A stretch of DNA of 64,000 nucleotides from Cyanidioschyzon merolae (Eukaryota): NCBI GenBank assembly GCA_000091205.1, contig AP006489.2; one strand, 5' to 3'. Below are positions 2,824-60,701 of this stretch, piece after piece; the first letter of the stretch is position 1; each line of letters starts with the position of its first letter. The notes below the pieces were generated by a model, which worked only from the letters and a program-made list of their open reading frames with translations, made no database searches and had not been told where the DNA came from. The translations under genes were made by a program, and so were the position numbers.

Positions 2824-3270
2824 TCATGACGAGCTCAAAGACTGAATCCAGTCCTGAACAGGGTCTCCCGTCGACGCGGCTCGGTCTTCGGACCTGGACA
2901 GCTGTTCCCGTAAAGCCTGCAGCTCAGCTGCCTGACGCTGAAGCTCCGCCTCGAGCTTCCTCCGCGCGTTGCGCTCCCGCTGCGCGTTCATAGAACTACC
3001 AGCCAAATAGCCGATAAAAACTGCACCCACTCGCGCAAAGTTCAAAAGACTCGTATACGACGCCGTGGCACCAGCTGAACCAACAGTTCCGGAAACCATT
3101 CCTGTCTTCTCAGTGCAGTATACCCGTTCCGGGTAGACAGAACGACGCGGATTCGCTGACGGCGAGCAGTGCGCGACTCTACCGATCCACTTTTTTCTTA
3201 ATTTGATCAAATGTTCATAGAGGCCAGCGTTCCCCAGCTGTGCGCTTTGTATCCGCGCGCGGTCATTCAT
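2824..3270 (-). CDS. Hypothetical small protein with one TM-like segment followed by a coiled coil (first ATG; track ORF starts at a GTG at 3282)
   Basis: ORF 2824..3282(-). Hydrophobic segment TSLLNFARVGAVFIGYLAGSS followed by RKLEAELQRQAAELQALREQL. No family recognised. Confidence 0.3.
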   Translation of the reverse strand: MNDRARIQSAQLGNAGLYEHLIKLRKKWIGRVAHCSPSANPRRSVYPERVYCTEKTGMVSGTVGSAGATASYTSLLNFARVGAVFIGYLAGSSMNAQRERNARRKLEAELQRQAAELQALREQLSRSEDRAASTGDPVQDWIQSLSSS

Positions 3271-3329
3271 CCATCGATCCACGTCCTACTTCCAAGTTCC
3301 ATACCTCATTCTTCTTCTCGGATATACTC

Positions 3330-4620
3330 GTCGTTTGATCTGCTCTATCGAGCGCCGAGCACCTGCCCTGATCGTCTGCGACAGCGCCTGTACCGTTGGT
3401 ACGGATGCAGCTCGGCAACAGAACGGCGTTGCCGTGCCAGAGAGAGCGTCGGCTCGACAGGTTAAACGAATGCCGTGTCACGGAGGCCTCCCATTCTTGT
3501 TGGACCGGCCACCCTTCCAATGGTTTCAGCTTCTCCTTGTGCATAACGGCTCTGAGAGGCTGCCCCACAAAGTTCGCTCGTGTCTGCTCCGCGGATCACG
3601 TCTTCAGTACCACACATCGTCCGATATGGATGGCGGCATTGAAGTCTCGGTTCACGGATTCTATGCGTTTATTGCCTCTGATTGAACAGATCCTTTCAAG
3701 GCGTCGTTGAACGCTCGCCCCCTGTTCGATTTGGTGCTCTATCAGCTATTCAAACTTTCCGATCGCCGAGGCGCTTCGCAGCCTTCCCACCGTCTCGATC
3801 TTCAGTATTGTACGCCTCTGCTGAATCTTTCGATTTTTTACTTTTGAAAATGGATGCACTACTTTGTACCCTTTTAAGTGAGGGCCTTCTCGGGGCGAGA
3901 AGGACTTGCGGAAGAAAGACGAGATGTGCTGCCTTGTGTTACGCTGTGTTGAAAACTTCATCAATTCGCCCAGAGCAGCGATCGCTACGTTTCACGATAG
4001 AGAGCACTCTTTCGATGCGGCTCAACAATGGACAGTACGGAGGAATGAAGAGCAGCTCTACCCGATAGACCCGGCAAAAGCTCGAACGCAAGCGGAAATA
4101 TCAAATGCAACGTTGTCCAAAGGAAGGACGTGGCAAGACCTTGAGAAGAAAATTTTCAAGGATTCAGTGGAGTAGATCGTGGCGTTGTATGAGCTTGCTG
4201 TACGGGCGAAACTGAGACCGTCGAAAGAATCCACTGCATCTATACTAGATAATGATGTCGTCGTTCTCTTCGAGTTCGATCTTAGATACAACGGGTTCCC
4301 TGTACGCGAATACCCAGATACGCTCCGATTGTTTCATCAGAAGCAAGTCTCACCGACTGGAAAAACAAACCGGCGTCCCTGTGCTTCATACGGATCGGAA
4401 CGTTCCAGGAACGCTGTCGCTGCGATTCCGATGGAAGATAGCCTTGCACGAACCAGGGCATTTTGGGAATGTATCACGGTGTTTTTGCGATCATATGAAC
4501 GAGCTGGCGAGAAAAATACATACAGGTAATGGCTATTGTCATCGCTCTCGCCTTCCGAAAAAAAGGGGTTCAAAGGGTCATTCTCTACCATTGACCTCAG
4601 GAAGTATCTGAAAATATCGG
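3330..4620 (-). mobile_element. Degraded composite DNA-transposon remnant, copy 1: Tc1/mariner-type transposase C-terminal fragment plus TnpB/Fanzor-like RuvC-III fragment plus a conserved downstream hairpin-rich element
   Basis: Minus-strand translation near 3990-4060 gives VELLFIPPYCPLLSRIERVLSIVKR (compare Tc1 [13 protein letters not shown]..LK). Minus-strand 3610-3650 gives ESVNRDFNAAIHIGRC (RDxNAAxNI RuvC-III signature). The whole interval is homologous, inverted, to 48640-49900: shared peptides FFRKSFSPREGP, C(V/I)RAFA(G/D)SI, LVLFE(F/Y)D, VLHT(D/G)R..PGTL, with a constant coordinate sum near 53188. Confidence 0.55.
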
Positions 4621-5024
4621 TTTCTTTTGGCGCGAAGCGCAGAATACTTGTTTCTTTCTGTGTTCTTCAACGATCTGAGCTCTGTGGACTGGCCGACTGA
4701 CCTGCATGAGGAAACCAGCCCTCCATACACTATTTAGAAAAGAACATATATCCTACAGGCAGTTCGTCGACGATCTATAGGGTACGCTGCATCGTGATAC
4801 CGATCTCCTGCAACATACCGCAACAGGGGTGAAACACAACTGGATTGAAAAGCCAGAAAGTCCTGCTGCCGACCTGGCCTGGGCTGGGCATCTGCCCGTC
4901 GGCGATTATCCGGACAGCACCGAAAGCGCTCCGCCTGGTTACGCTAACCGAGGTGTTTTTGGGCTTTTCGGTTGCCGCTGAGCGAGGTTCGCCCATAACC
5001 AACCTGCACTGCTGCACCAGTGGC

Positions 5025-8476: not shown

Positions 8477-9852
8477 GAAGGAAGCTTGCTTCGCATTCGC
8501 GTACGTCTGAGACAGCGTCAATGACGAAGAGTTCACGCTGTGAGGAAACCGCACCTAGTCAGGCGGGTAGGCAGTCTGCCTGAATACGTTCGTACGTATG
8601 GGTGTCGCGCGCGACTCGAGAAAGTAACGACAGCAGGTAGAGGCGCGCGTGGATACTCCGCCAAGCTCCGACGTGAGACACGGGGGCTGGTTGCTCTCAT
8701 ATGCACGTTGAGGGTGCCTATGCTTTGAATGCACGTAGTTGTAGGTGTGTCTGCTTTCCAGGGAAAAACTGTGCAGGAATATGGGCGAACGGATGCAGTG
8801 TCTGCATAGAAAAACGAAAGCGTTGAGCAGTACGCGTTTGTTTTTCATAGTAGCTATCGGAAAATCGACGCTTCGTTGCTTGATCCCTGAACAAATCAGC
8901 AGAAAGGTTGCAATGAGAAGTCTATCTTGCCGGCAGCAAGTCTCGAGCAGGCATCCTGGCAAGCTGGCTGGTTCCCGATCTAGCGAAATCAATACCACGA
9001 AAACGAGCTGCTTCCGGTGTCGGTGCACTGTGCTCGCGGTGCCTCTACTACGTCGTGTCGCGACTTGTGCCGCTGGAGCGTGAACTCTGCCGCAGAACGA
9101 TACGCAGCGCGAACAACAAAGCACGCTGTTGCTGTGGAGCTGTCGCAGCTCCTGCTGACAGCATCAGGCTGCGTAACCTGGTAGAGTCTCGTTCGGTGCA
9201 TCGATCTCGTTTGGCGTACCCGACGGACTACACGAATCAGGGAATCGCTGAACCATACGCAATGGTTATTGGCATCTGGGAGAGCGTCCATTATGCTGCA
9301 GGAGACTTGCAAGCTCCACTGGGTACCAGCCATAATTCCATGCGGATATCATGGTCGATTCAAATGGTCTAATAGGTGCTGAGCTCACCGTACGCGCTCA
9401 CTACCAAGTCTGTGGATGCATGGATCCTGTGCAGTTGATAAAGCATCCACGTTCGAAACCGATACTTGGTACGATGGTAGACAGTTCTTTCATGCCAGCT
9501 GGGCGTGCTGCAGGACGGTGCATGTGCTCGCTGCTCATCCTCCAATGCTCGACATGCACTCTTGTGAGAATTAAAAATGAAACAAGTCCATGAGCACGGG
9601 GCGTGCAAGTCTAACCTGGGATCTATCTCTGCTATCAGCAATACCAGCGTTTGCGGGCTTTTTCGAAGACGACTTTGTCTCTCTGATCTCCGGATTTGAA
9701 CACGTTGGTGTGCCTGCTTTTCGCCCAGCTCCGCTGCGGGCAGTCGAATGAAGTTGACAGCAGCTTTCAAGTCCCGAAATCAAAGCGCCAAGCTGTGATT
9801 CAAGCATTTCATGCACAGGCAAGCGTTCCGATTTGCGCTCGGCATGCCAGAT

Positions 9853-10339
9853 TCATACTTTTTTTGTGTATGGCCTCGATGCGCACTTCGTAGCGGTGAC
9901 GCTCGGCACGGGTATGGTAAGGGGTTTCCATGTAAGAAATGTGCTTTCACCTGCGGGCGGTGCACGACGGTGCATGAACGCCTGCCTCATGGCTCGGTAC
10001 ATGCCCTTGACAGGCGTACAAGGCTTTCCTCGATACTCGGCTCGGTTTCCGCCCCGGTGCACCGCACCCTATGATCACAGGCTTTTTCTGGGCGATCCCC
10101 TTGTCAAGGACGCGGTCCGCCGCACGCGCAAGCTGTTCTGTTCGATACAGGATTTGCGGAATGCGATGCTGTTCATAATGAAACAAGTACCGGAACGAAA
10201 CTCCATCTTGGAGAACAAGTCGCGCAGCATCGATTCGTTTGCGTTGCTTTCGTACAAAGCGGTGGTGTACGCTCTACTGGAAGTGATCGCTGCGATGACA
10301 GGTGCCCGAGTCGAACACCCTTCCCGACGCAAAAGATAG
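9853..10339 (-). pseudogene. TnpB/Fanzor-like nuclease fragment (copy A), frameshifted and truncated before the zinc finger and RuvC-III
   Basis: Consecutive minus-strand ORFs in different frames carry LFSKMEFRSGTCFIMNSIAFRKSCIEQNSLRVRR and then RGKPCTPVKGMYRAMRQAFMHRR..FLTWKPL. These align residue-by-residue with copy C (35.5-35.8 kb): DMDFAFRARFIINNITLH and KPKVSVKGMYRVMKQFLTRH..VDIWEH. Confidence 0.5.
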
Positions 10340-11093
10340 AGATGCAGACGCTATGGAGCATGCTCCGCGATAGGTAGCATACTGCCGTAAAGTACCGAAT
10401 CATCAACGGCTGCAGAGAGAGACAGCATGATTTGTCTATCGAATAAAGTCGGTTATTTAACGGAACAAGTTCAGTAACGTTTTTGCATGAGCCTGCGACA
10501 AAGGATTCTGGGAGATTCTTTGGGGGGTTTCGTTCCCCCAGCAACCCAGCGGCATGCTCAGTTGCGCCGCCGAGTTGCCTCAAAAGATAGTCGTATAGAA
10601 AACCTGAAGCAGTTGTGATATGGGCATGGTACACGTAAGGAAAGGAGCAGCGTGGACTATCTTACACACGAATTGGATAAAGATATCGCGTACCTTACGA
10701 AGCTTTGCTCAAGATCGTCTCAAACCATCTTGACTCCTGGAATGTCATGAATTCCAGTGGTAAAGCATCGAAGGAGCAACGCTGAAAACGCGATCAAGAA
10801 CCCTAACGCTGCGTGTGAGTCCGTGAACCCCCATTGCTGCCATTCGAATGCCACGGCTATCTATCTACACAAATTTTCGGAAAATAATCGAAAGCCTGGA
10901 AGAGAGCACCCAGTACCGTATTCCGAAATGTTCTGACATGGGCGTGCGACACAGCTTCCGCCAATTTTGAGAAGCGCGCTCCGTGAGCCGCGCCAGGTAT
11001 TCGAATACTTTAGACGTAGACAGCGTCTTGGTACCAGCATCCATAAGAGATGCTGTTTGGCAGCTACTGGAGCCCAGTGTGTGGCTGGTTTGA

Positions 11094-11128
11094 CACCACC
11101 ACCACCACCACCACCACCACCACCACCC
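11094..11128. repeat. (CCA)n microsatellite, about 11 units
   Basis: Run caccaccaccaccaccaccaccaccaccaccacc seen directly. Confidence 0.95.
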
Positions 11129-11734
11129 TGGATATGCACGCTGCCTGCAGAGGTTCCCTAGCGAGTCCGCAGGCCGCGTACCTGGCTGGCCAGATACCAC
11201 CTCGGTGTTGTACGTGGTGCACCGGTGTTTCGTGTCGTTTCACGTGCCAAGTACCATTCCACCAGATGTCTCTACTGGATTCCGGGTTTAGCGAATGGTC
11301 CCGCTTCCTCCACACCTAACCACGATTCCGTCACAAAGAAGCTGCACGGCGTGCCGCGTTCTCTCTTCCCTTGAAGACGCTTCCATTCCCAGTGCGGTAT
11401 GCGAACGGACGCTTCGCCGCCTCCGTTTTGCGTCAGGCAGCGCTGGTTAGACTCAAACTCATGGAGAGACGCATCTGCAAAGGCAGAGCAGCCAGTTCCA
11501 CGCTGAGTGCCGCTCGTCGTCGTCATCATCACCATCGACGAAAAGTTCTGCGCTGAGGCGCCTCGCCTCTCCTGTCAATATCGTGGAGCGTGGCGCGCCA
11601 CTATCGACGCTAGCGTGGCCAACTTCCAGACGCGAAACATCAAGCATTGGGTACTTGTTCGAAAATCATGCCTCTCCAAGTGCCAATGTATCCCATGCGA
11701 GCGCTCCAAGTGCCGGTCTGGTTTACAATGACGT

Positions 11735-14647
11735 TCAGACGCTATCGCGCAAATACTGACAGAGAAAGAGTACCTTCGAGAGCGTGTCCTCGCACCGAAG
11801 CCAAGAGCTGTCGAGTGCCCTCAGGCATTTCGATGCCCCGTGCTGCAGTGCCGGTTCCTTCATGATCAGCTCCGCGTGCTCGTTCAGAAACACCCGTAGC
11901 TGCGCCTGAGCAAGTTCAAAGTCACGCTCTGACTGCAGACGCCACGTGAAGAACGACAGCGCATCGGCAAGTGCCTCGGGCGGCAGCAGCCGTATTTCTA
12001 CGTCTGCCGCCGCTGGTGTCAGCGCATCCAGGCGCTTTGCGGCGGTGGCAAAGTCTGCTCGCTGCAATGCATCCACAAAACTCGAGGCTATCGAATCGGG
12101 AAGCGGTCTGCGGTCCTCGATGCCGGGCGAAACAGACGCGTCCGCAGCTTCGCGGTAGCCGTCGTGCAGCTCAGCGACTAGCGGTGGTGGCGGTTTCTGA
12201 GTCCCGGTCACGGAATCGCTCTCCCTCGTTGCCTTGTTCTGCTCCTTGATTTCGTCAAGGTACGGCAGCAGAAGCCAGTAGCTTTCAGGCTGACTCGAAA
12301 ACACGACGCCGCAGTGTGCATCGTCGATAGGTTCAACGGTTAGCGAAACACATCGCGGGTTATTTTCAGGGGATGCTGTAGCGTCTGCAACTGCGGAGAC
12401 AACGGGATCCCACGACATTGCCAGGTCCGGCAGCTGCACCGCATGACGCCGCCAGAGCGCTTCCACATCGAGACCATTTCCCGCTCGCGAAGAAAGCGCC
12501 ACCATATTGCCCTGCTCGCTGGGCCCCCGATAATACGCTTTGCAGTGCCACATGCAGATTCCGATATGCCCCACATGCGTTGTGACAATAAAATCGCCCC
12601 GTGGTGACATGGCGCATGACGTCGGTGCAGCAGCCATACGAAGCACATCCACACAGCGGCCTGCGACAAGATCCCACGTTCGGAGCGTTCCGTCCAGTGA
12701 AGTGCTCAGAATTTGTCGCCCATCTGCTTGGCAGCTGAAGCAGATATCCGTAATGCGAGCAGTGTGGCCCCTGAGCCAGCGCACACAGCGGCCGCTCGCT
12801 GCCTCAAAGACTTTGATGGAAAAGTCGTCAGCACAGCTCACAGCGAGAAGATCTGAAACCGGACTCCAGATGAGCTGTAGACCTGGACTGTGGACGACAA
12901 TATCGGCGACTTTCTCACGCGACTGATGTCGATAGATGCCGAGGCGTCCGTCGTGGCTACCCAGTGACGCAAGCAACCCGCCGCTCCCGTCGAAAGCGAC
13001 ACCCGCTACACCTCCCGGATGGTGCGCGTCTCGTATCCGCCACCGATGCAACCCACTCTGGAGGTTGAAGAGATCAACGTGACCCACAGAGAGACCTACT
13101 GCAGCGAAATGGCCGCAAGTGGAAATTGAAACACAAGTCGCAGTGCCTTGATCGAGATCCGTTGAAGCGTCACCCCGGAAACGGAGCACATGGCGATAGC
13201 GATGGTTCTCAGCGTAGCGCCAGGTGTAGGCCTCGGAGCGCCCGAGGTGACACGTTACCAGATTGGCAAGATCCGGGTCGTTTTGTCGAGCCTCACTCAC
13301 AGCAAACTCCGTTACCGGTGGAAGAAGCGATGCGGTGTCGGGATCGTCCTCGTCGAGTGCGAACTCATCCGATGCTTCAATGGCGCGCTCGTGTTGCATT
13401 TGACGGGCCCGCTTGCGTGCTCTCCGTAGCCGCGTTGTGACCTGGGACAACTCACGGTGATGATGGGATACGACTGTGCTGGTAACGCGCAGCTGCTGAT
13501 CACTGCAGCCCGCAGAGATCAGCTGGCGATAATCTTCACCGATGAAACGAATGCGCGTCGGCGGTGCCCGGTGCCCGGCTCGGTACTTGAGCAGACGCGG
13601 TGCACCGCTCGGTGAATCGCAAATAAACATGTTCATGCGATTATCCTCATCGCCAATGGTCAACAGGATCGGCTCGCGGGGATAGAAGAACGCCATCCGA
13701 CATGGACCCCGATGCAGACGCGGTATCGTGTCCAGAACTCGCCGTGCTTCGAGGTCGTAGATGCAGAGAGAGCCATCGGAGTGGAACGAGAACAGATGCG
13801 GAAACGCATTCGCATCGTCGTTCCGGAAACACAACGCATTGACAGTGAGCGAGGTACCCAGTGGCAGGTGCATCCGCAGGTTGTACTGATCCAGGATCGA
13901 GCCACGACCAATGTCGTAGATGATCACAGAGCCGTCGTGGAAACCCATGCCGATGATATCCAGCGCCGGAGACTCTGACAGCGCCGTCACTGCACCGTGC
14001 TTGGAAAAGTCGAGTGTCTGGAGGATGCGACTGTGGCAAATATCCACGAGTGCAATGCGCCCCTGGTCGCTTCCGATGCAGACGACGTCGAGCATCGTCG
14101 GTGGATGCACAATGAGGCCATTCGGGGTGATATCTTCTCCGAAGAATACTTCCGAGACGAGCTCATTGTCGCGGTTGTAGGTGCGCGCGCAGCGTTCTCC
14201 AGCGTCCACTGCAACGAATACTCCATTCCCAAAAGCGTATAGCCCAACGATGCAGCCACCTGGGGCAGTTTCGATCGACACACGGGATCGCAATTGTTCT
14301 GTTATATGAAGGCTGTGCTGTGTGGCAACAACCAGTCGCTCTCGACCGAGATGCGCTACGGCAGTGATGCGCGAAGGCAAAGCATTCGATAGGCTCAGTA
14401 AACGAAGCGTCCTTCCATCGTAGAGCTGCAGGCAGCGTCCAAGCGGTACGACAACGAACGGTGCAATGCCGAGTTCATAGAAGCATGGCTTGGGGGACGA
14501 GGTACCGCCAAGCATGCGCCCGCTTCCCTCACAGGTGACCAGGCCGAGAACTCGAAATGGAGCGTAAAGTGACGTGCGTTGCCCCAGCGCGACGAGTTCT
14601 CCCTCTTCGAGGCCACCTTCGAGCAGCTTTCCCTCCGCCTGCACCAT
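11735..14647 (-). CDS. WD40-repeat protein, UTP21/WDR36-like (U3 snoRNP / SSU processome component)
   Basis: 970-aa ORF with ATG start. Many WD-like repeats (GH..V..V..H, ..DG.V.I.D). C-terminal alpha-helical domain, as in Utp21. Assignment to UTP21 specifically is tentative. Confidence 0.75.
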   Translation of the reverse strand: MVQAEGKLLEGGLEEGELVALGQRTSLYAPFRVLGLVTCEGSGRMLGGTSSPKPCFYELGIAPFVVVPLGRCLQLYDGRTLRLLSLSNALPSRITAVAHLGRERLVVATQHSLHITEQLRSRVSIETAPGGCIVGLYAFGNGVFVAVDAGERCARTYNRDNELVSEVFFGEDITPNGLIVHPPTMLDVVCIGSDQGRIALVDICHSRILQTLDFSKHGAVTALSESPALDIIGMGFHDGSVIIYDIGRGSILDQYNLRMHLPLGTSLTVNALCFRNDDANAFPHLFSFHSDGSLCIYDLEARRVLDTIPRLHRGPCRMAFFYPREPILLTIGDEDNRMNMFICDSPSGAPRLLKYRAGHRAPPTRIRFIGEDYRQLISAGCSDQQLRVTSTVVSHHHRELSQVTTRLRRARKRARQMQHERAIEASDEFALDEDDPDTASLLPPVTEFAVSEARQNDPDLANLVTCHLGRSEAYTWRYAENHRYRHVLRFRGDASTDLDQGTATCVSISTCGHFAAVGLSVGHVDLFNLQSGLHRWRIRDAHHPGGVAGVAFDGSGGLLASLGSHDGRLGIYRHQSREKVADIVVHSPGLQLIWSPVSDLLAVSCADDFSIKVFEAASGRCVRWLRGHTARITDICFSCQADGRQILSTSLDGTLRTWDLVAGRCVDVLRMAAAPTSCAMSPRGDFIVTTHVGHIGICMWHCKAYYRGPSEQGNMVALSSRAGNGLDVEALWRRHAVQLPDLAMSWDPVVSAVADATASPENNPRCVSLTVEPIDDAHCGVVFSSQPESYWLLLPYLDEIKEQNKATRESDSVTGTQKPPPPLVAELHDGYREAADASVSPGIEDRRPLPDSIASSFVDALQRADFATAAKRLDALTPAAADVEIRLLPPEALADALSFFTWRLQSERDFELAQAQLRVFLNEHAELIMKEPALQHGASKCLRALDSSWLRCEDTLSKVLFLCQYLRDSV

Positions 14648-16771: not shown

Positions 16772-17430
16772 GTGGATCCCGAGCCGCACCCGGAGGTTAC
16801 GCTCAGCAGGGTCAACGAACGACGAGACGCGCTGGTTAGCGCTGCTGACTTGTTCCCGGATGCATCACAGGGCCGTGGCCTGGTATGCACCAAAACTTAC
16901 GGTATGCGCGTTGCTCGATCATGACGGCAAGCTATGCGCATCTCGGTTGTGCTTGGTCTGGCACAAAACGCGAAAGCAAGCTGCCAGTGATCTTGATTGT
17001 CGCTTTCAAGTGAAGCGGCGGGTAAAGCACGCACCGACGGGCGCTATGTCGACCGCTGCTGCGGAACGACCAGACGGCAGGCGTCGCTGCGACCTTGTGA
17101 TGATGCCACAGAGAAGCACATAAATGAGCGTTTATCGTTACCAGCTTCGACGGAGCATGTGATTGTTCCCGCTGGAGAATGCACATTAGTGTGGTGCGTT
17201 CCCGTCAGGTCAAGTAACGACCGGGGATTCCGTCCGCACCGCCTCCGTTAGACATCATGTGCTGAAGGTGTCCGAGGCTCGTGCGCAGATCACTCGCTTG
17301 GGCCGTACTCGTCTATGTGTCGAAAGGAAACACCGTCGACGAGCCGAGTGCTTCGCTTCGATCGCTCATTCGTCATAGCATTGTAGATGAGCGACGAAAG
17401 CGCGTTCATGACGCCTCGCTCCGCGCCTCG

Positions 17431-18037
17431 CGAATGGAGTCTAGAGTGGGTATCGTCGAAAAATACAAGTCTATGATCGTTGACGAATTGCCCACGACAA
17501 TCGTTACCAGTAGAAAGAGGTAGAGAGAGAGCTATGCGGCGCGTCAGGCTTGCTCAGTCGCTGAACCCCTCCATACCAGTCCTTTGATCAACGCGAGCAT
17601 CCAGAGCGGTATCTCCTGGTCACCGAGTTTTTGCATCGGAATGCAGCTGCGTTTCAGTACAATGGCCGCACAGAGTGCGAAACGAGTCTCGTTCAAGTTC
17701 GCTCGACACGAAACCGCTGGACGCGACTGAAGCGCAGGACATTTCCGGGTATCGATCGCTGCATGCAAGTAGCGGTTCGGAAAGTGCATGCCCTGCTGGG
17801 TACTGGTGGCATCGCAACACAGCAAGTGTCACCACCAGGTCGATAGTCGCGCCATCTGATGTTGCATCAGTTACCCGATGTACGATCTTGTGAGTCTGGC
17901 TCTGTTTCACGCGCCTCTACGCTGCCGGATTCAACAGGCACCTGTGCTCGCGATACACGTACTTTGTCCTTATTCATTCGCGAAACTCGCATAGATCCGA
18001 TTGCTGGACTCGGTGTATGCTCCTGTCGATAAAGTCG
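17431..18037. repeat. Dispersed 606-bp repeat, copy 1. About 99% identical direct copy at 25076-25682.
   Basis: Both copies begin gaatggagtctagagtgggtatcgtcgaaaaatacaag and end gatccgattgctggactcggtgtatgctcctgtcgat. I found only 4 mismatches by eye. Flanks are unrelated. Confidence 0.9.
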
Positions 18038-20757: not shown

Positions 20758-21204
20758 TTACTTAAGCGGGATGAAACGTGACGACGATGAGGCACCAATA
20801 CCTGGCCTCCCGTGCTTAACTGGCTTGTACGTCAAACTGAACTCGCCAAGGTAGTGGCCAACCATATCCCCGCGGATTTCAACCTCGTTGAAGGTGCGCC
20901 CGTTGTGAACTCCGAGGCGTGCACCGATCATCTCCGGAACTATGATCATGTTCCTGCAGTGCGTTTTCACAATCTCCGGCTTGCTGAACTCATCAGGGAC
21001 TTCGGCCTTCGCTTTTCGAATTTTCTTTATGAGCGAGGTCTGCCGACGGTCCAGGCCACGCGCGAGCTTCCGCCGAGCGCGTGCTGGTAAGAGCTCCACC
21101 ATTTCATTGTGCGGCAGCGCAAGAAGTGCCTCCAGGTCTACACCTCTATAGGAAAACTTGCGAAAAGTTCGCTTCTTAGGCGCTGATGAGCTTTCCTCGT
21201 CCAT
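20758..21204 (-). CDS. RPS15: 40S ribosomal protein S15 (uS19)
   Basis: [19 protein letters not shown]...[62 protein letters not shown] is near-identical to eukaryotic RPS15 over its length. ATG start. Confidence 0.93.
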
Positions 21205-21244: not shown

Positions 21245-22460
21245 GTGTACGCCAAGCAGCGCAGAGGGCGGCATCTAAGCGAGTCGCGGCGAGGCCGCGA
21301 GCGGCGACCGCATCTTCCTCATGCTGTACCTTACGCACTTTTAGGGATATATCTGGACTTCATTGGCCTGTCCGATGCGTGCGCGCCTATTTTTGTCCAT
21401 TTTGATGCAATGCTGACCAAGCCAGCGTTCTCTGACCCGGTGCTCGGTATTCGCACGCGGTGGAGCATTCGTGATTCCAGGGCCCGCTTCCAAGTCCCAG
21501 AACCCATCCTTCATCCCGTATACACAGGTTGCTTCATTCGTTCGATCGCTTGCCCAGCGTCTCCCCTGATCGTCCGCAATACTGCCTGTACCGTTGGTAC
21601 GGATACAGCACGGATGCAGTACGGCGTTGCTGTGGTAAACGAGGGCTTCGGGCTCGAGGTTTGCCTCAGACGACACTGAATCAGGGCTCGTCGCCAGTTT
21701 GTGCTCAGCCAGTCTGCGGTTGCAAACTTGCCTTCGCTGCACGACACGTTGGAGCAACTTGGCTGTTAGGATGAATCCTGGGAGGCGCCTCTCTCCTTTG
21801 TGATCGTTCATGGAATGCACGATCGTTTAGCGACGCGGGCTATTGCTAGGCACCCACCAGTGGGTAGGCGCAGAAAGCGCACTGGGCCCGTGTGCGCATC
21901 CGATTCGCTGGACCTTTTGCCCAGAGGGTGGCTTGGGCGCGAATGTCCGCCAGGCCGCCGCCTGTCTGTGGCGCACGAACGCTTGCTTCATCGGTCGGTG
22001 CATGCGACGGGCGTATGCAAAGGGTTACACCCTGGATGCTCCTCTCGGTTTGCGCATCCGGTGCTGTACTCTGCGATCATGGGCCTCTTCTGGGCGATTG
22101 CCTCGGCGAGTGCTCTGTCTGCTGTAAACACAAGCGCAAGCGGTTTTACTAGATAGCGGTTATGTTGCATGGGATTTCATATTCTTGATGAAACAGGTAC
22201 CGGGAGGAAAATCCAGGCTGGAGCAGAAGTCGAGAAATGTCGATCTGCCAATGCTCCTTTCGTCCAAATAAGCGACGCCCTGGACATGGAAGCGATCGCC
22301 ACGATGGCTGAATTCCGAGTCCGAGGCCTTTTTCCAGGCACACAGAAGAGACGGAACCCCCTGGGGGCATAGTCCATAAGATGCAATGCCGCTGCCTGGT
22401 GCCGTTCCCGTGAAGGCCACAAAGAGAGGAGTCTATGTCTGTCATTCGGAATCAATTATG
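21245..22460 (-). mobile_element. TnpB/Fanzor-like element remnant (copy B) plus a downstream conserved hairpin-rich element shared with 3340-3450
   Basis: Minus-strand ORF ending at 22160 has LDFPPGTCFIKNMKSH, the family motif seen in copies A, C and D. Interval 21540-21650 is about 80% identical to 3340-3450, with core gcctgtaccgttggtacggat.cagc.cgg...cggcgttgc.gtg. Further minus-strand similarity (MHKEKLKPLEG vs MNDHKGERRLPG) runs up to about 21820. Confidence 0.45.
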
Positions 22461-22984
22461 ATTTGATTTGACAAGTTCTCGGAAAGTTCGGCTGGAGCTT
22501 GTGTCCAAACAGCGTCAGGCCGACGTCGAGTGTGTTTTTCCTCGTCAGGCCAGCGGCACGAGTTGCTGCATCCATGCATTGCCATGAGATCGAAGTATAG
22601 AAAATTTGGAGAATGCATGGTTTCGGCATGCGGGACGTTTGCAACATTAGAAAATTGGAGGTGTGTACATACGCACTGGATAACGATATTCGTTATTCTA
22701 CGAGCACGCGTTCACTAGCGACGCCAATCATGACGAATTCGTTGACAGCACGCATTCTGGCGGCAGCGTCCCAAAAGATCGATTCCGATGAACGCGACCG
22801 TGAAACCCAAAACAACGAATGATTCGATGAGCCCTGATTCATGACCTTCGAAAGCCGAACCTGTACAGCTTCAAAAAAACTTTCGGAAAAATATTCCAAT
22901 GGTACGAACAGAGCAACCAGTTTAGCGTTCGGTTTTCCGCTTTACGGATTCAAAGCACCGCACCTGGTGCAAGCCGCAACTGCA

Positions 22985-23565
22985 GCGCGGCGCCAGCGCG
23001 GACGCCCACCCCCTGCCAGCGTGGGGCCCATGGAGGTATCGTCTGCTTAGTCTCTAAAGTGGTAATCTATGGTAGTTTTATGCAGAATGACTTGGCAGGC
23101 GCTATGGACCGCGAGGGCGCTGCGCTCGCGTAGCAGATCGTGCAGTTTTATGCGTTGGTAATATAGTGACGCGCATGCGCTTGCGCGGACGCCCACTCCC
23201 TGCCAGCGTGGGGCCCATGGAGGTATCGTCTGCTTAGTCTCTAAAGTGGTAATCTATGGTAGTTTTATGCAGAATGACTTGGCAGGCGCTATGGACCGCG
23301 AGGGCGCTGCGCTCGCGTAGCAGATCGTGCAGTTTTATGCGTTGGTAATATAGTGACGCGCATGCGCTTGCGCGGACGCCCACTCCCTGCCAGCGTGGGG
23401 CCCATGGAGGTATCGTCTGCTTAGTCTCTAAAGTGGTAATCTATGGTAGTTTTATGCAGAATGACTTGGCAGGCGCTATGGACCGCGAGGGCGCTGCGCT
23501 CGCGTAGCATATCGTGCAGTTTTATGCGTTGGAGATATAGTGACGCGCATGCGCTTGCGCGGACG
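22985..23565. repeat. Tandem array of a 179-bp unit, about 3.2 copies, ending inside the 5' end of the PcyA ORF
   Basis: Unit gcgcttgcgcggacgcccactccctgccagcgtggggcccatggaggtatcgtctgcttagtctctaaagtggtaatctatggtagttttatgcagaatgacttggcaggcgctatggaccgcgagggcgctgcgctcgcgtagcagatcgtgcagttttatgcgttggtaatatagtgacgcgcatgc recurs at about 22997, 23176 and 23355. The first copy is slightly diverged. Confidence 0.9.
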
Positions 23566-24526
23566 GCTATTACTTGCCAAAGCTGACCATCCTGCCGCTT
23601 CACTTGAGCTGTGTGTACGCATGGCTTTTCTTGCAAGCAGTTGCGTAACAACTGCGCATCCGCTAACCCGTCGTTCAGCGAAGCAGCGCTGTGCGGCAGG
23701 GGTCCACGTGCGTCGCGCGTTGCTGGCCTCAGGTGCTGCTGGCGAGCGAAGGTTGCGGCGCGTGCAGCACCCACTGATTCAAAGACTCGCTGAGGGCATA
23801 GAGCGCACTTGGCAGACAGAGCTGCATGACCTTGCGCCGTTTCACCTACCAGAGGACCTAGGCTACATCGAAGGGAAACTCGAAGGCGAGAGAGTCGTTA
23901 TCGAGAATGTCTGTCATCAGAGTCCGGCCTTTCGAAAAATGCATCTGGAGCTAGCACGTGTCGGGACCTCCCAGACCGCGTCCTTGGATATTCTGCACTG
24001 TGTTATGTTCCCGTGCGCTGGGCGCGTCGGAACCAATGTACCCATGTTCGGCTGTGATATTGTAGCGGGACGGGGAGCGGTATCCGCAGCGATCGTCGAC
24101 CTGTCGCCAGTCAGCGCCTCGCGAGAACTGCCGCCGAGCTACCGAGACGCACTGCAGTCGCCGGAAATGGCTGCGCTTCGACGTTTTCGCCAGGTACGCG
24201 AGTTGCCGGCTTGGGGTCGCGAGATCTTCTCCGAATTCTGCGTTTTCATACGCCCGGTGCAGACACCCGAATGCAATGAAGAGGATCGCTTCGTGGATTT
24301 AGTATTGCGGATGCTCCGGATTCACTGCCATCTAGCACAGAAGAGCACGAGCACACCACATCTGGACCAGGTAAGAGAGGCCCTGGAGGGCCAGATTCAC
24401 TACTGTCGAAAACAGCAGGAGAATGACAAAACGCGCCGTGTCCTGGAGAGTGCTTTCGGTAAACCCTGGACGGAGCGCTACATTAGCACGGTGTTGTTTG
24501 ATTCGCCGGTGCTGGCAGCGAACTAG
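23549..24526 (+). CDS. pcyA: Phycocyanobilin:ferredoxin oxidoreductase (ferredoxin-dependent bilin reductase, PcyA type) with an N-terminal presequence. Start is ambiguous (23549 or 23621).
   Basis: [50 protein letters not shown]...[23 protein letters not shown]...[24 protein letters not shown]...[34 protein letters not shown] closely follows cyanobacterial PcyA as I recall it. The track start at 23540 is GTG, and ATG 23549 lies inside the last tandem-repeat unit. Confidence 0.85.
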
Positions 24527-25075
24527 ATTACCTTTTGGTAATGCTGTCAAGTGAGTACATGTACAACACGCAAGATGCATTTAGCATTGTAGTCGAGTGG
24601 AGTTCTAGGAGCCGCTCGGTACAAGCTCTTTTCCTGTTGCAGTGCCACGGCGGCGCGGTGTCGTCAGCTGGCGAAGAGGCCTCCACCAGAACCTGAACGT
24701 AAGCGACGCCGCGCTGTACGCTGCCTATTCACCGAGGACGCATCCATGAAACCAACGTGAAACGCATGGCAATGCCGCATGGGTCGTAACGCGAATGCGA
24801 ATGCCGCACAGCGCCTTTTGCATGACGATGATGGATGCAAACCTCCCGATATTTGTGTCGAGTGCCGGATGATGACTGGATGCACGTGCACGTGAAGTCG
24901 AATGGACAGGATGCTGCGGCTGGTACAGCGGCATCGGTCGCTGCCTGCACGGTACAAGCTGTCATGGAATGCGCGCCACTCGAGGGCATTCCATAATAGG
25001 ATATGTGCTCGCTTTGCGCTGGGGTCATGTTGGGAGTACCTGCAACGCGCATCATGCGTTGGACCAGACCGGCGC

Positions 25076-25682
25076 GAATGGAGTCTAGAGTGGGTATCGT
25101 CGAAAAATACAAGTCTATGATCGTTGACGAATTGCCCACGACAATCGTTACCAGTAGAAAGAGATAGAGAGAGAGCTATGCGGCGCGTCAGGCTTGCTTA
25201 GTCGCTGAACCCCTCCATACCAGTCCCTTGATCAACGCGAGCATCCAGAGCGGTATCTCCTGGTCACCGAGTTTTTGCATCGGAATGCAGCTGCGTTTCA
25301 GTACAATGGCCGCACAGAGTGCGAAACGAGTCTCGTTCAAGTTCGCTCGACACGAAACCGCTGGACGCGACTGAAGCGCAGGACATTTCCGGGTATCGAT
25401 CGCTGCATGCAAGTAGCGGTTCGGAAAGTGCATGCCCTGCTGGGTACTGGTGGCATCGCAACACAGCAAGTGTCACCACCAGGTCGATAGTCGCGCCATC
25501 TGATGTTGCATCAGTTACCCGATGTACGATCTTGTGAGTCTGGCTATGTTTCACGCGCCTCTACGCTGCCGGATTCAACAGGCACCTGTGCTCGCGATAC
25601 ACGTACTTTGTCCTTATTCATTCGCGAAACTCGCATAGATCCGATTGCTGGACTCGGTGTATGCTCCTGTCGATGGAGCTGG
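25076..25682. repeat. Dispersed 606-bp repeat, copy 2 (direct orientation relative to 17431-18037)
   Basis: See copy 1. The duplicated ORFs in the track (17544..17825 and 25188..25469) are identical. Confidence 0.9.
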
Positions 25683-27866
25683 GGTGTGGATTTTGCGGGC
25701 GGCAGCGCATCCAGCACCATAGGCTATTACCGAACGATGAGACTGGCATGTCATTTTTTCTGGTGCACTGAATAAATTGGCGAATGCACGCGTCTTGGCT
25801 CCGAACAATCAAACCCATTCGCGACGTGAGCCCGGTCTTTTGAACTCCTGCAAATGATCGTTTGCGCATAAGATGTAAAGACGTTCATGTACACGCTGAA
25901 TAAAACCTCCAATGTATCTCGCTCCGCTCCATGCAGTACGGGGTGCATCGACATGCGTTCTGACGTGGTCATGTCGCTCGTTGGTATGCCTCGTGACGCC
26001 CATTTAACTCGAATTTCGATCAAAACAAACGCTGGAGTGATAGAGTATCTGCATTCGGCTCGGGTCTTTGGCTTCATCCCCTTGATTTAGCGGCCTTGGC
26101 GACGACCGCGACACCGTGAACTACGGGTTCCAGGCTCACCACGAGGCTTTTCTCGTTGTCAATTGTGAACGGTTGGCAGTGAAGCTCGTTGCTCGACTCT
26201 GGTCCAGATGCTGCGAACTGCATGCAGATTGATGTTCCGTGGGTCTCCCGTATCCCTGAAAACTTCTATCTATTTGTTTCCTGTAAAACGAGAAACAATG
26301 TACGCGCTACGCCAATCCTTTTCGCAAAGCTGTTTGAGTCGTTCGTAGTTGCTCGCAGTAACTAGCTCCTTCTTCGCCTTGTCTTTTACTTGGCGGGTTG
26401 GTATACATAGGGTCACTGTACGCGATATACGGTTATTTTACTCGGAATGCAGACGAACGGAATGGGCAGCGGTACCAAATTTCGCCTTTTATAATCGTAT
26501 ACCCTCTATTGTACAAGTGGCGTTTCTTATCTTCTCCGCCGAATGCACGTCCATGGACCGAAGCGTGTCCCTCTGCTCCCGAGCGTATTCGAGCAGGAAA
26601 GCAACCCCGCAATTCATGGCTGGCGAAAGTGGACACGGACTTGTCTACTGGTACATTAGTAATAAATAGTGTTTTGTCAACAGAGAAGACGCTTTCAATT
26701 TGAATGAACCGGAATGAATAGGCTGGTTCGAAGAGCACCTCAACGACGCACTGCGCTCCATGGTCGTTGTTGATTGACGGAAAACGACCTTGTCGAAAAG
26801 CAGGACAAAAGCATGCCGGTCGGAGATCCCACGAAACGTGCTTCGACGACAGATGAGGTTTCCCATGACCCTTCCTGTATGGCAACTTGTCAGCGATTCC
26901 ATGACAGCGTCGCCACACGGGCTGATCTCGTCTCCATGTTCGCTTGATTCTCCTTTCCGAAAAGCGGCTCTCCCATTTTTGAGAACGCAATATCCATCGC
27001 CTCTATTTTCCCACGAATAACGTCCGATCGAATGAGGCGTTCATCCGTTCCTACTGAAACAAGCGTTTCCATTGCAGCACCAAGTCGATTACGCGACACA
27101 GAACGCACGAGCGAGTCTCGCCGCTGAAGCGCGCTTCTCCCTGGCTCCACCCGAGTATCTCTATCAGCCTCGGTATGAAGCATCCTGGAACTGCATATAT
27201 GCTGTGCCTCTCATGCTGGTGTTTCCTGGAGCATGCACGTCGTGGAATGATCTGAGCAGCACGCTCAAGTGTAGAGAACATGTATGGTGCATTCTGCTTT
27301 TTTTTGAGCGCACGACGTCCATGATCTCGACAACGACCGGGACGATTCATGCGTTCTCTCTGACCCTCGTATGACGAACTTGTAAGCGTCGGGTCTGTCG
27401 TTGACCAGCCAGCAGTGACGCCATCGAGTCTCATCGCGAGCTTTCGCCGACCAACAGGAATCGTTCTTGTTGTTGAATACCACCGAGAGGACCGAATAAA
27501 ACCAGAAACGGCATGCTGGTACGGGCATTCCGGATAAGCACAAGCACGTCAGTGGTCGATACCTTTACGTCACGCGCATCCTCAGCACCGATTCCTACGT
27601 ACCCTAGTCTCTATAGTTGCTCATAACTGAGACGAATATGACGGAACATGTCGCTCGCCTCCTTCGATTCGCATGCCGCTCACGACCGTCTCCGCGAGAC
27701 GTGCACACTTCACGCTGCGAAAGAGGAGAGCGCTCTCACCTGAGCGCTTTCCAGTTGACCGTATGTAGAAGAGAAACTGCTTTTCGTGGAGATATCTCCC
27801 GTGAAGCCCACGCAGCGCCAACCCTGTGCCACAAAGACCGCACGATTCTAATACCATCACTGCTAT

Positions 27867-30962: not shown

Positions 30963-31221
30963 GAGGAACAGCACTCCAGCGCCTTGCTCCGTATGTCTGA
31001 AGTTCCGCACAGTCAGTAAAACCGGTCTTTGACACCTTCACGATGAGAAAGACGACGTCTCGAAAATGCAGAGGCGTATCGTGCTCACACCTCGCTCGCC
31101 GGTGGACTAGCACGGCTGATGGTACGGGAGCCGGGGCGAACGTCGCATCTCCGGCCGGCGGTCGGTGGCTTGATCATCACCTGGCTCAGCGAGGTACAGC
31201 ATTGAGCATCTGAGCGGTTGT

Positions 31222-31556
31222 ATGGTACTCTGGACGGAGCTGGTGAAGGAAACGCAGCTATGATAGATCTCTCGTTGTTGTATAGGCTGTATAGAGCAAT
31301 ATAGGCGAAAGAGAACGCAACCGATTCCTGTTTATCAATGAATGAACACTCTCTGGTCAAGCAGGTGTCTCTGGATAACGTTCTTTTTTGGAGATTTCGA
31401 CGGAGCTGGTGAAGGAAACGCAGCTATGATAGATCTCTCGTTGTTACATAGGCTGTATAGAGCAATATAGGCGAAAGAGAACGCAACCGATTCCTGTTTA
31501 TCAATGAATGAACACTCTCTGGTGAAGCAGGTGTCTCTCGATAGAGAATTAGCAGC
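31222..31556. repeat. Tandem duplication, 2 units of about 167 bp, roughly 200-550 bp upstream of the AlaRS start
   Basis: cggagctggtgaaggaaacgcagctatgatagatctctcgttgtt.tataggctgtatagagcaatataggcgaaagagaacgcaaccgattcctgtttatcaatgaatgaacactctctggt.aagcaggtgtctct occurs twice (about 31225 and 31400) with 2-3 mismatches. Confidence 0.85.
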
Positions 31557-36677: not shown

Positions 36678-38072
36678 GATGAACTGCGACCCCAGATAAC
36701 GCCTACTCGTTGTTTTCTATCGCTGCGTTAGGTGCCGTAGCAGGTAAACGCAAGCGTCTATCTCGAGCAGCTCAAACGCGAGCAGTACCCACGAGGCATA
36801 GCAGCGGCTTGTGCACCATATCGCAAAAGCGTTTTTTCGTCTGGCAGTTGACGCCCGTGTGCAGCAAATGCGGGTGCGTTCGGCTTCGCACAACAGCTAT
36901 CCATTATTTTCCCAAATAATACATACATGTACAGTAAAATCGCATATGCGTGCCAGAGGTCCTGGTGTGCATGCGCATTTCTCTATGGCATGGGATGGGT
37001 GGCACGAACCGGACATCGCTCCATGTGTGCGCTCTCTCGAAGCATCTGGGTATGCATGCGGCATACCGCTCCAGATGCTCAGGTTCCACCCGCCGTGTTC
37101 ATCATTATCATCATCATTACCGTGAACGTGTTCTATACTTCCCATTGGAGATGATGGTTCGTTCACGTCATCTCCCTGGTGCCAGGCATGCTATGTGCGC
37201 TCACCGCAACGACTACGGCGCCGGTACGGACGCTGCTTGGCGACAGAACAAGCGCACGAACACGCTTCCAGCCGCTGTGGACACAAGCGTTTGGCGCACG
37301 AGCCGGTACGCGCACCCTCCGCAAGGCCTCTGGCATGCTGGTCGGCGTGTTCACGATAGCACCGCGCGGAGTTGCGCAGTGCGAACGAGACAATAGCGAT
37401 ACCAACGTGCTGCCTGCGATGCGCCGATGACATCGCCTACGCAGAGCGGCGACAAAGATGCAGGCGGCATAGCGCAGGCATCATCCAGAAACTATGTCGG
37501 TGGCAACGCAGCGAGCTGTCATCTCTTGCCCGCAACGAATGACTCGCCTTTCGCAAAACAGGTCCGCCGTCATCGATCCCTCCATGCAGCACTCGTGCGC
37601 GCAGGCGTCCGTGGACAACACACTGCAGTCCGGTACAAAAGCCTTGCTCCAAGCGCATCTATCCGCAGAAAAATTGACGCTTCGACTTGCTGCTGTGGAC
37701 GACGATACCACTGCCAGCGCCAGACGCGATGCAAGCGGACGTGACACCCTACAATTGACACCAGGCGCAAGCATGCACCCGTAAGCGATCCGGCTCCATT
37801 GGAAAACACAACCGATATGGCAACACGGTCGATAGCGACGATGCCCCTGCACTCGACGTATCGGCAATCCGGAGGTGCCTACACATCGACGGCAAGCCGG
37901 TCGACCGCTTGCGGCAAGCAGAAGCGCGGTTTCGGCAGGCACTAGGCACACACGATAGGACGTATGAAACGACCAGAATATCCGAGAAGAAGTATAGGGA
38001 ATGTAACTTGGAGGTAGGGTGTTTGATGGATACTTAAGCGTGCACTGAAAACCCCACAAAAAGAAAAGAAAA

Positions 38073-38615
38073 ATGCGCATAATCGGAGAACGCTACGAAA
38101 GCGCTTTGTCAATGAAAGAACATGAAGAGGCGCCGCTGCTGCCGCCGCAGCCAACGCACGGCGTCGACGTCGGGGCTCGCTGCACGGCTGCCGCTGGTAC
38201 CGTAGGTACGGGTGCTGCATACCCTGCGCTTCGCGTCTCCGAGCAAGTGGTGAACATGGCGCGGCTTTTTGAAGTGCCACCAGATAGTATCGCCGCTAAG
38301 AAGCGAGAGCACAACTGGTGGAACCGCACCGTTGACCAGTTAGAAGACTGGAAGGACTCGGTCACGGAGACCAAGTGGTACCAGCGCGTGGAGCGGGTTG
38401 CGTCTTCGGGCTACACCTTCGTAAGACGAGCGTTCGGTTTAGGCGGCCGCGTGGCCTGGATCAGTGCAACCAGCGCTTTGGTGCTTGTGGTTCCCCTGGT
38501 TTATGAAATTGATCGGGAGCTGGATGCAAACGCGGCAAGTTCTTCGGCCGCAGCCGCTGGGGGCAGCGGTGTTGGCAGCAGTAGCACCGCTGGCCGTCCC
38601 GCTGCGACTCGATGA
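38073..38615 (+). CDS. TOM22/TOM9-like mitochondrial outer-membrane import receptor subunit
   Basis: GGRVAWISATSALVLVVPLVYEIDRELDANAA resembles plant TOM9/Tom22 (GKAAWIAGTTFLILVVPLIIEMDREAQ). Single TM followed by a short tail. ATG at 38073; an alternative ATG lies at about 38256. Confidence 0.55.
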   Translation: MRIIGERYESALSMKEHEEAPLLPPQPTHGVDVGARCTAAAGTVGTGAAYPALRVSEQVVNMARLFEVPPDSIAAKKREHNWWNRTVDQLEDWKDSVTETKWYQRVERVASSGYTFVRRAFGLGGRVAWISATSALVLVVPLVYEIDRELDANAASSSAAAAGGSGVGSSSTAGRPAATR

Positions 38616-58916: not shown

Positions 58917-60701
58917 TGTTCCCCTACAGACTACACCGCCAGGGCCTGCGGCAACAAACGCGCTGTAGAGGCAGCGCGTTTCTCCACGGCGATATGCGAT
59001 ATTTGCCGCCGCGTCCACGCACTGCACCATTGCGTACCGGGAGGCGATGCCTCGAACTGACTGTGCTCGACGAGTGTGCGGTTGATATCGGTTGCTGGAG
59101 GCACAAATTTCGAATTATCGGGCGACAGGTCCACGATCCTACTCCAGGCAAGTGCGACTCGGCTTGTCCGCCTGGTCATTGTGGCCCAGAGCGCGAGCGA
59201 GCGCCACCTTCCGGCGCCTGTGAGGCTGCCTCGGCCCCGGTACCACGACGTATGCAAGTTCCCGAAACGAGGTCCTCTATGCTACTGGTTGTCCACGTGA
59301 TCAGTCGGTGCCTGTGACTGAGCCTTCTCGATGACATTCGCTCTCGTCGATCATATTTTCGTGCTTCGCAGCGGCGCGTGCAGGCGAACGCTGCGATCCG
59401 GTGCGGCAACCTTGCAAGCGCGAATGCCCTGCTCTTGATAATTCGATGCTTTGCACGCGCAAACGGGTTTGAGTCACAACTATCTGCATAGGATCATGAA
59501 AGACGAACCGGTGCAATGAGGCATTCAGGAACGGGCGCACGGGCCTCGGAGTACCGGCTCTGAGCGGGCGATGTCGACGAGCGCGTCGTCAATACGCGAT
59601 TGCGACCAACTTGGGGCCGCAGCAAGCATCAGCGGCCTCTCTGGCAACGCATCGACAACGAGACGAGAGACTGCTCACGTTAGACGTGCAACCTGATTCC
59701 ATCGAGGCCATGGGAATCGCCAGACTCGATACAGGGTTGCGGGGCACGGCCGTCGATTCGCCTGCAACGACATACGACGCTGTTGCTGTTGCCCGGGACC
59801 ATGCCATCTTCAGAGCGAGCGATCGACTTTGAGCGGGGCCCTCACATCCGACCAGCGAACAACGTGTCAAACTCTTGGACTGGAACGCTCGTTCTTCGTA
59901 GCAGGTAGAGCGAAGCGCGATGATAACCCATCTCTAACCATAAAGTACCCTGCTCGCGTGCACGTCGTTGTCGCTTTCCTCGATGGCTTCCCGAACGCAA
60001 CACGCAAGCGTCTTGCAGCATGCATCTCCGTAGAACGTCGCTATGTCGCGAACCGACACGCACAAGGGTATAGGAAAGCTGTTTAGCCGCTGTGCTGCAT
60101 CTGTTCCAGCGGTTTGAGCGCTACGGCGGACGCTCCAAGCACGAACTCGGCGCACGATAGAACGTACAAGACGACCAGTGCATCTGGATGGGAGTATCAG
60201 CAATGCAGCTTGGAGGCAGGGTGCAACAACATCATGGACGCTTTCCCGAAAGCCTATTCCCATCCGAATCGCACTCTGGAGTCCGTGATCGAAGGCAACG
60301 TTTTGCGATCGGACGCGCAGATCCTCAATCGCCGCGCATGCATGCTCGTGTTGCCATGCCGCGCAAGTGCATTGCGCTGGGGCGGCGAGGCGCGCTTCTG
60401 TAACTGTGGCACATTTGTCTAATACAGGCGACGCGCCCCCGCAGCAGCCGCAGCGACTGCATATCGGGTCGAGCGGGCGTGCAGGCATACGCCACGAACG
60501 CTGGCGCATGCTCGCGTGACTGCGGGCATTTTTCAAGGTCGACTGTCGGAACGTACCGTAGTGGAGCTGCACACGGGCGTACCTCTCACTTGTTTGAGTT
60601 AACTGTTTGAAAACATAGCGCGTAATTGATCAGAGAGGGGTTCGGAGAGAAAGAGGGGTGAAACGCTGTCCTGGGCGCTGAATTATTCGCAGCACGGACG
60701 A

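Follow-up and report, generated by a model that had tools for sequence, protein, structure and literature searches.

We analysed a 64,000-nucleotide (nt) stretch of contig AP006489.2 from Cyanidioschyzon merolae (assembly GCA_000091205.1), hereafter the window, with a focus on a repeated block at positions 21390-21935, located between the gene RPS15 and a minus-strand pseudogene fragment of a TnpB-like nuclease. A related copy lies near the beginning of the window, fused to the remnant of a Fanzor nuclease. The initial annotation of the window, made from the sequence alone, had proposed that the block is the right end of a TnpB-like element or the scaffold of its omega-RNA. The evidence presented here points to the opposite end of an element that is already known: the block very probably corresponds, in decayed form, to the left-end module of the transposon CMe-1A, its initial ~260-320 bp, and is thus a relic of a described family. 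The origin of the DNA is well established, as the RPS15 and PMP22-like (60702-61694) proteins encoded in the window are identical to BAM79624.1 and BAM79637.1 of C. merolae 10D, and contigs with 99% identity to the window are available from hot-spring metagenomes.

Comparison of the window with itself using BLAST reveals a direct repeat, with 3223-3457 and 21421-21657 in the same orientation (70.9% identity over 237 aligned nt, E 4.5e-24; 71% over 214 nt without gaps, and 67-71% overall). The block had initially been described as an element of about 100 bp, present in two places in the same orientation and roughly 80% identical. The repeat and its orientation are real, while its length was underestimated: copy boundaries in the window and in metagenome loci, determined with nhmmer and a profile hidden Markov model (HMM) of the left-end module, are 3191-3511 and 21390-21719 for these two copies, the second one continuing to ~21935. 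The 80% figure holds for the quoted motif (80.5% across the 77-nt core at 3360-3436), the identity being 70-71% across the 111 nt originally delimited. Moreover, the block is present at more than two places, and the window carries at least four old, immobile copies of the left-end module along with a smaller fragment, as follows (consensus positions, here and below, are those of CMe-1A):

21390..21935, plus strand: copy B, the main locus; TE-N2_CMe-like, left-end module and distal part, consensus ~1-533
3191..3511, plus strand: copy A; left-end module, consensus ~1-290, its distal end fused to an inverted Fanzor 3' remnant
37897..38119, minus strand: copy C; truncated left-end module (nhmmer E 8e-45)
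60015..60320, minus strand: copy H; short-form left-end module, consensus 1-253, including the true 5' terminus (nhmmer E 1.4e-74)
9257..9386, plus strand: small left-end fragment (nhmmer model positions 50-172, E 2.4e-9; by blastn, consensus 45-83 at 9262-9300)

The CMe-1A consensus was taken from supplementary file 2 of Bao & Jurka (2013, PMC3627910). CMe-1A is the sole Fanzor1 family described for C. merolae, with a length of 3169 bp, no terminal inverted repeats (TIRs) and ~150 copies showing ~80% identity with the consensus; its 5' 635 bp are 95% identical to TE-N2_CMe, a separate element with ~70 copies (Bao & Jurka 2013, Mob DNA 4:12, PMC3627910). The four copies in the window match this consensus by blastn with E-values from 2e-13 to 2e-44, namely consensus 84-254 in copy A (3285-3457(+), 78%), 90-286 in copy B (21489-21689(+), 69%), 84-166 in copy C (38018-37934(-), 87%) and 1-253 in copy H (60311-60049(-), 75%, E 2e-44). 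The nhmmer E-values reach 4e-86 for copy A and 5e-85 for copy B. The host is the same, and the part of the consensus to which the window DNA corresponds is its initial ~260-530 bp, with 69-87% identity, in line with the published ~80% between copies and consensus. Nothing essential differs: the repeat has already been described, as CMe-1A / TE-N2_CMe, and is an ordinary transposon relic. The initial annotation was right to connect the block with a TnpB-like (Fanzor) mobile element, and its fallback suggestion of a subterminal repeat of the element came close to the left-end module identified here.

The position of the block within the element was established from the consensus and from genomic copies. 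Metagenome contigs were scanned with a 24-nt pattern located inside the module, leading to 50 loci (designated by L and a number), and the HMM matches in these loci and in the window were clustered into 26 distinct module copies. In the consensus, the Fanzor open reading frame (ORF) spans positions 906-3110, downstream of the module matches and on the same strand, and the block is therefore a left-end segment, with ~650-900 bp separating the module from the ORF. The module also runs contiguously into the Fanzor ORF, on one strand, in L019, L011, L008, L024, L031 and L055, with single high-scoring segment pairs (HSPs) covering consensus 3-2477 (L019), 3-1172 (L011), 84-1810 (L024), 84-1461 (L008) and 84-1317 (L031). 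These contiguous copies confirm the published orientation of the consensus and argue against the Repbase consensus being chimeric. The consensus starts with CGATGAC and ends with GAAAGGCG (AAGGCG), and its canonical right end (3110-3169) has a sequence unlike the block and a hairpin of its own. No significant TIRs were detected, consensus 1-300 scoring 20 when aligned with either 3' end in reverse complement, for a shuffle mean of 18. As a separate observation, the 5'-terminal 10-mer GACAAAACGT (consensus 5-14) recurs in inverted form at consensus 3098-3107, exactly at the Fanzor stop codon and ~60 bp short of the 3' end. The fusion with the inverted module at locus A (junction ~3455-3490) directly follows this point; the 10-mer is not significant by shuffling.

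Copy B itself is a nearly complete copy of the TE-N2_CMe type, of ~545 bp, because its distal part matches consensus 455-533 at ~21850-21930 (score 38, where shuffles reach 31 at most) and because 21641-21932 is 79-82% identical to paralogous copies in L055 and L038, in which the similarity stops at the same point. Across the family, the copies share a fixed 5' end and display nested 3' ends at consensus ~254-264, 582-596, 636 or 3169. Copies of TE-N2 length cover consensus 1-636 (L015, L045) or 84-634 (L028, L035, L051), and TE-N2-like copies also cover 1-582 (L013, L027 and others) or 4-596 (L012 and others). Past the short-form end at consensus ~254-264, the flanks are unrelated among copies. 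The Fanzor-bearing part (consensus 648-3145) is also found without the 5' 636 bp, in L015 and L045. Neither this arrangement nor the ~260-bp class ending at consensus ~254-264 is described in Bao & Jurka 2013 (PMC3627910). Since no segment other than the module is present in every size class, we propose that, while the family was active, it was probably a cis-acting left end carrying sequence needed for mobilisation; it may also have acted as a promoter reading into the element.

Additional features of the 5' terminus were noted. A T-rich run precedes it in most copies. At three independent loci, two modules are arranged head-to-head, with 0-12 bp between the 5' termini in HMM coordinates, or the first ~55 nt are inverted: L055 4583-4843(-)/4848-5181(+), L046 2592-2861(-)/2874-3086(+) and L028 8083-8137(-)/8138-8393(+).

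Copies A and B have in common an exact run of 21 nt, GCCTGTACCGTTGGTACGGAT, located inside the motif quoted above, and the palindrome gtaccgttggtac; the 13-nt palindrome occurs in A and B alone. The nested inverted repeats initially reported for the block were thus retrieved in part, since the second one (ggcaac...gttgcc) is found in copy A only, copy B reading ggatgc...gttgct, which is non-complementary. Gene conversion between A and B was considered as the source of the private 21-mer and rejected, the local identity profile not rising above that of A against L046; chance or a shared sub-lineage would suffice. A further ~150 bp of minus-strand similarity between the two loci had been announced; we could not recover it, the local alignment of 3458-3800 with 21690-21970 scoring 16 for a shuffle mean of 18.5. 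What A and B have in common comes from the transposon by inheritance, and its decay shows no constraint on a protein frame or on secondary structure.

With regard to the protein frame, two minus-strand ORFs overlie the block, 3263-3568 (101 aa) and 21341-21820 (159 aa), and share WH.NAVL.P.CIRTNGTG..ADDQGR. In both, one and the same frame stays open throughout the block, and metagenome annotation calls such ORFs as genes, for example a 156-aa product on contig L001, which would fit a protein-coding exon. We nevertheless regard this as extremely improbable. The mismatches between A and B are distributed over the three codon positions as 19/26/24, with no third-position excess, the consensus has stops in all six frames, other copies also stop in that frame, and a frameshift breaks the 159-aa ORF in L005 and L006, two contigs with ~99% identity to the window. 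Neither ORF reaches the Pfam gathering score, the best weak matches having E-values of 0.035 and 0.096, and long spurious ORFs are common in a genome of 56% G+C.

The block shows no more constraint as an RNA. Described initially as hairpin-rich, copies A and B show no excess folding energy on the strand proposed for the omega-RNA (minimum free energy z-scores of +0.51 and -0.14 against dinucleotide shuffles). The search for compensatory substitutions that had been recommended was carried out with RNAalifold on 25 distinct copies and returned -0.97 kcal/mol in the sense and -0.68 kcal/mol in the antisense direction, with 0 compensatory pairs and hence no covariation. The two inverted repeats of the initial annotation pair in 58.8% of cells across copies, as compared with 58.5% in shuffles, and an alternative 4-bp stem, CCGN...NCGG, displays a few double changes, matched by a slid control. 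Rfam was searched with the whole window at the gathering threshold and with both loci at E<=1, and yielded only a chance match to a long non-coding RNA (E 0.17).

Three nuclease or transposase relics adjoin copies A and B:

3483..3811, minus strand: C-terminal pseudogene remnant of a Fanzor1 (CMe-1) with the RuvC-III motif NRDFNAAIHI; an internally deleted derivative
3882..4831, minus strand: DDE_3 (IS630 / Tc1-mariner type) transposase pseudogene, directly upstream of the deleted Fanzor remnant
21965..22888, minus strand: TnpB-like pseudogene fragment of a second, compact family (family 2), truncated near RuvC-II and lacking a 3' end; abuts the distal end of copy B

The presence of minus-oriented TnpB-like remnants next to both copies had been noticed correctly (the Fanzor with NRDFNAAIHI at 3512-3811(-) for A, the fragment at 21965-22888(-) for B), with the difference that the one next to B belongs to another family. 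If the block were an omega-RNA (reRNA) scaffold or right end, a minus-strand RNA would run from the 3' end of the TnpB-like ORF through the block and into the flank, the latter acting as a guide. In Fanzor systems, guide RNAs have indeed been located at the right end, from which they extend into flanking DNA (PMC10432273, Saito et al. 2023; 10.1101/2023.08.09.552727, Yoon et al. 2023), and the block resembles them in being non-coding and in lying at the terminus of a transposon family with a TnpB-like nuclease, with variable host sequence beyond. At locus A, it starts within ~30 bp of the Fanzor C-terminal remnant, and this junction is kept at a second locus. As for the variable sequence beyond the block, flanks outside the 5' terminus of the module are unrelated among copies, as at any transposon terminus, and hence do not discriminate for or against a guide. 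The block differs from an omega-RNA in lying at the opposite end, upstream of the ORF and on the same strand, both in the consensus and in the contiguous copies, in lacking a conserved fold and in being mostly without a nuclease gene nearby. At both A and B it is on the plus strand, inverted with respect to the adjacent nuclease remnants, while the canonical right end (consensus 3110-3169) is another sequence with its own hairpin. Furthermore, the remnant beside B is truncated before the zinc finger and RuvC-III, and all nuclease remnants mapped in the window, like all copies inspected in the fetched loci, are pseudogenes. The initial annotation had held that occurrence of the block independently of TnpB-like sequences would refute its proposal, and this is what the copies show: in 19 of the 26 distinct ones, a TnpB-like remnant is missing from the surrounding 500 bp, 7/26 have any such remnant within that distance, and only 4/26 show the proposed configuration. 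Altogether, an omega-RNA role for the block is very unlikely. Judging from characterised Fanzor and TnpB systems, a guide RNA of the family would instead be made at the other end, at consensus ~2950-3169 and beyond. More generally, closeness to a TnpB-like remnant in repeat-dense intergenic DNA is no evidence for an omega-RNA, and the orientation relative to the family consensus should be examined first.

The same data bear on whether the block could be a free-standing structured non-coding RNA gene or the head of a retroposon resembling a short interspersed nuclear element (SINE), unrelated to a DNA transposon. In favour of this, there are solo copies of ~260 bp whose 5' end is fixed. However, there is no Rfam match at the gathering threshold or at E<=1 and no conserved fold, the fixed end is the 5' one while the 3' end varies among copies, and in long copies the block is contiguous with the body of the Fanzor transposon, which renders this explanation highly improbable.

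Several points weigh against the assignment to a decayed CMe-1A left end, or against details of it. The sampling of loci with a 24-nt pattern is biased toward copies conserved at that site. The junction at locus A, in which the Fanzor 3' end meets the inverted module, is common to the paralogous L055 4340-4822 (one 484-nt HSP, 69%) and is therefore an inherited composite rather than an accident formed on the spot. In the sub-lineage represented by locus A and L055, the module does sit just beyond the end of a Fanzor ORF; with no structure, a deleted ORF and only two such loci, an omega-RNA role in this sub-lineage still appears very unlikely. Finally, the cis-acting or promoter role proposed for the module is deduced from its distribution among copies.

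The window contains further remnants of CMe-1 Fanzor, detected by tblastn at 3512-3811(-), 17694-17876(-), 25338-25850(-), 39720-41589(+), 49502-49798(+) and 63416-63679(-). The remnant beside copy A (amino acids 616-716, 44%, E 2e-16, with in-frame stops; consensus 2816-3081 by blastn) consists of consensus ~826-969 joined to ~2816-3091. The DDE_3 pseudogene that precedes it (3882..4831) is 74% identical to 48721-49307, a sister copy that matches Pfam DDE_3 (E 9e-9). The composite of DDE_3 and deleted Fanzor is found at >=4 loci, i.e. at least 3483-4831(-), 48331-49800(+), L014 4607-5917 and L016 8783-10083, with 67-74% identity. As this composite hints, a mariner-type element may once have carried the 'unclassified' CMe-1 Fanzor; this internally deleted Fanzor derivative linked to a DDE_3 transposase remnant is not described in PMC3627910. 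No intact Fanzor ORF was found in L055 or L019. The segment at 39720-41589(+) is a near full-length, heavily degenerate CMe-1 Fanzor1 pseudogene (tblastn amino acids 66-697, 24-31%, many stops). A direct duplication of 602 bp (17429-18030 / 25073-25674, 99.3% identity, 7.6 kb apart) contains a Fanzor C-terminal remnant; being far younger than the other repeats, it arose by recent segmental duplication or gene conversion.

The fragment abutting copy B matches positions 31-951 of a four-copy family-2 consensus by blastn (71%). Copies of family 2 are located in the window at 9497-10886(-), 21965-22888(-), 34852-36104(+) and 62044-63276(-), with many more in L007-L056, and every copy seen contains stops or frameshifts. 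The consensus, of ~1.4 kb, has RuvC-I to RuvC-III within ~175 aa and the signature C.C.KC...RNRD.NAAINI, its translation reading ...VIVG.GAGGGN...GKPYTPVKGMYRAMKQAF...VDTWEH.T...C.C.KC...FRDLNAAVNF. A sister copy at 35732-36025 matches PF07282 (Cas12f1-like TNB) with an E-value of 2.3e-4. Family 2 was also considered as a CMe-1 Fanzor and this was rejected: neither the CMe-1A consensus nor the CMe-1 protein matches it, BLASTP aligned only RDxNAAxN (E 0.13), and tblastn with CMe-1 gave no match, which makes it a separate family. The best match in the PDB, to caspase-3 over MDFPSGTCFIMNNITFHKSS (E 0.49), was judged to be due to chance because other copies carry C..C/KC...RNRD.NAAINI and one matches PF07282; a comparison with NCBIfam gave nothing useful. 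In L056, a family-2 TnpB-like pseudogene (11274-12330(+)) comes after a TE-N2-like copy (10439-11078(+), consensus 11-636) on that strand, a layout that parallels TE-N2 and Fanzor1 in CMe-1A, so that different nuclease cargos seem to be preceded by the same 5' module.

The distribution of the copies relative to host genes raised the question of promoter co-option, which had also been suggested initially on the grounds that both copies precede minus-strand genes, namely a 148-aa ORF and RPS15. RPS15 is itself the 148-aa ORF, and the gene beside copy A is a different one:

20758..21204, minus strand: RPS15, 148 aa; Pfam Ribosomal_S19, E 9e-33; identical to BAM79624.1
2824-3282, minus strand: small ORF beside copy A, 152 aa, GTG start

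Under this hypothesis, copies would have been kept as promoters or 5' regulatory sequences of RPS15 and other host genes. Copy B and RPS15 are divergent, with ~190 bp between the 5' terminus of the former and the start codon of the latter, and in 4/4 window copies the 5' terminus faces the start of the nearest host ORF divergently, ~0-390 bp from the start codon. Where a long ORF (cut-off 180 aa) lies no more than ~1 kb from the 5' terminus, the arrangement is divergent in 9 copies and tandem in 3, and the 9 include two from the window; A and B, whose neighbouring ORFs are below the cut-off, also face gene starts. Counting the probably orthologous pair L033/L036 once, the 5' terminus is divergent in ~11/14 scorable cases, usually ~50-800 bp from a long ORF (one-sided binomial p about 0.03). 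This bias is marginal, and an insertion preference for promoter regions could explain it equally and is the simpler reading. In Cyanidiococcus yangmingshanensis, the syntenic bilin-reductase/RPS15 spacer measures ~0.7 kb instead of the 2.5 kb of the window, and the module, CMe-1A and family 2 are all absent from it, which indicates that RPS15 does not need the element. The divergence between copies (mean pairwise identity 63%) is that expected for neutral relics. Promoter co-option, or exaptation as another regulatory element, is thus not supported by these data and is very improbable.

Beyond the assignment to CMe-1A, a mechanistic interpretation of the nested copies can be put forward as a speculative and rather unlikely possibility. 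Transposition might be one-ended or read-through (rolling-circle-like), with the ~260-bp module as its fixed origin; it would then generate nested products of ~260, 590, 636 and 3169 bp, pick up varied TnpB-like cargos and insert preferentially head-to-head, at promoters or at the 5' ends of other copies. The cargos pointed to are the Fanzor1 unit and the family-2 sequence of L056 (10439-12330). As in Helitron and IS91-type elements, copies have a constant 5' end and nested, variable 3' ends (about 260, 590, 636, 3169), and hairpins lie near two of the 3' ends (consensus ~556-592, identified by eye, and ~3120-3150). Unlike those of Helitrons, the CMe-1A termini are not 5'-TC...CTRR-3', so that the analogy is mechanistic only, and no RepHel-like protein was encountered in a search that was not exhaustive. 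If true, one-ended transposition would classify CMe-1A, a TIR-less Fanzor1 transposon that is still unclassified; the nested 3' ends, the link between DDE_3 and the deleted Fanzor and the second TnpB-like family could help in this classification.

A parallel to the short copies can be found in Spizellomyces punctatus, whose Fanzor1 'ghost loci' are non-autonomous elements of ~550 nt that have their ends in common with Fanzor loci (Saito et al. 2023, PMC10432273). Like these, TE-N2_CMe is short and non-autonomous, outnumbers or accompanies the nuclease element and has terminal sequence in common with it. The ghost loci nevertheless retain inverted repeats and a right-end omega-RNA-like region, whereas TE-N2_CMe corresponds to the left 635 bp only and has no TIRs.

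For annotation purposes, blocks of the 21390-21935 type should be masked as CMe-1A / TE-N2_CMe repeats, and the two overlying minus-strand ORFs should not be considered as genes; beyond annotation, the significance of the block is small. The window also contains unrelated repeats. A tandem array at 54235-55423 comprises 127-bp units x8 (93-94% identical), another at 22990-23579 comprises 187-bp units x3 (95-99%) and is located inside the enlarged RPS15 / bilin-reductase spacer that is short in Cyanidiococcus, and a third at 31218-31543 comprises 166-bp units x2 (93%). Trinucleotide runs of the (CAC)n / (GTG)n and (CTG)n types are found at 11094-11127, 48176-48201 and 61818-61858.

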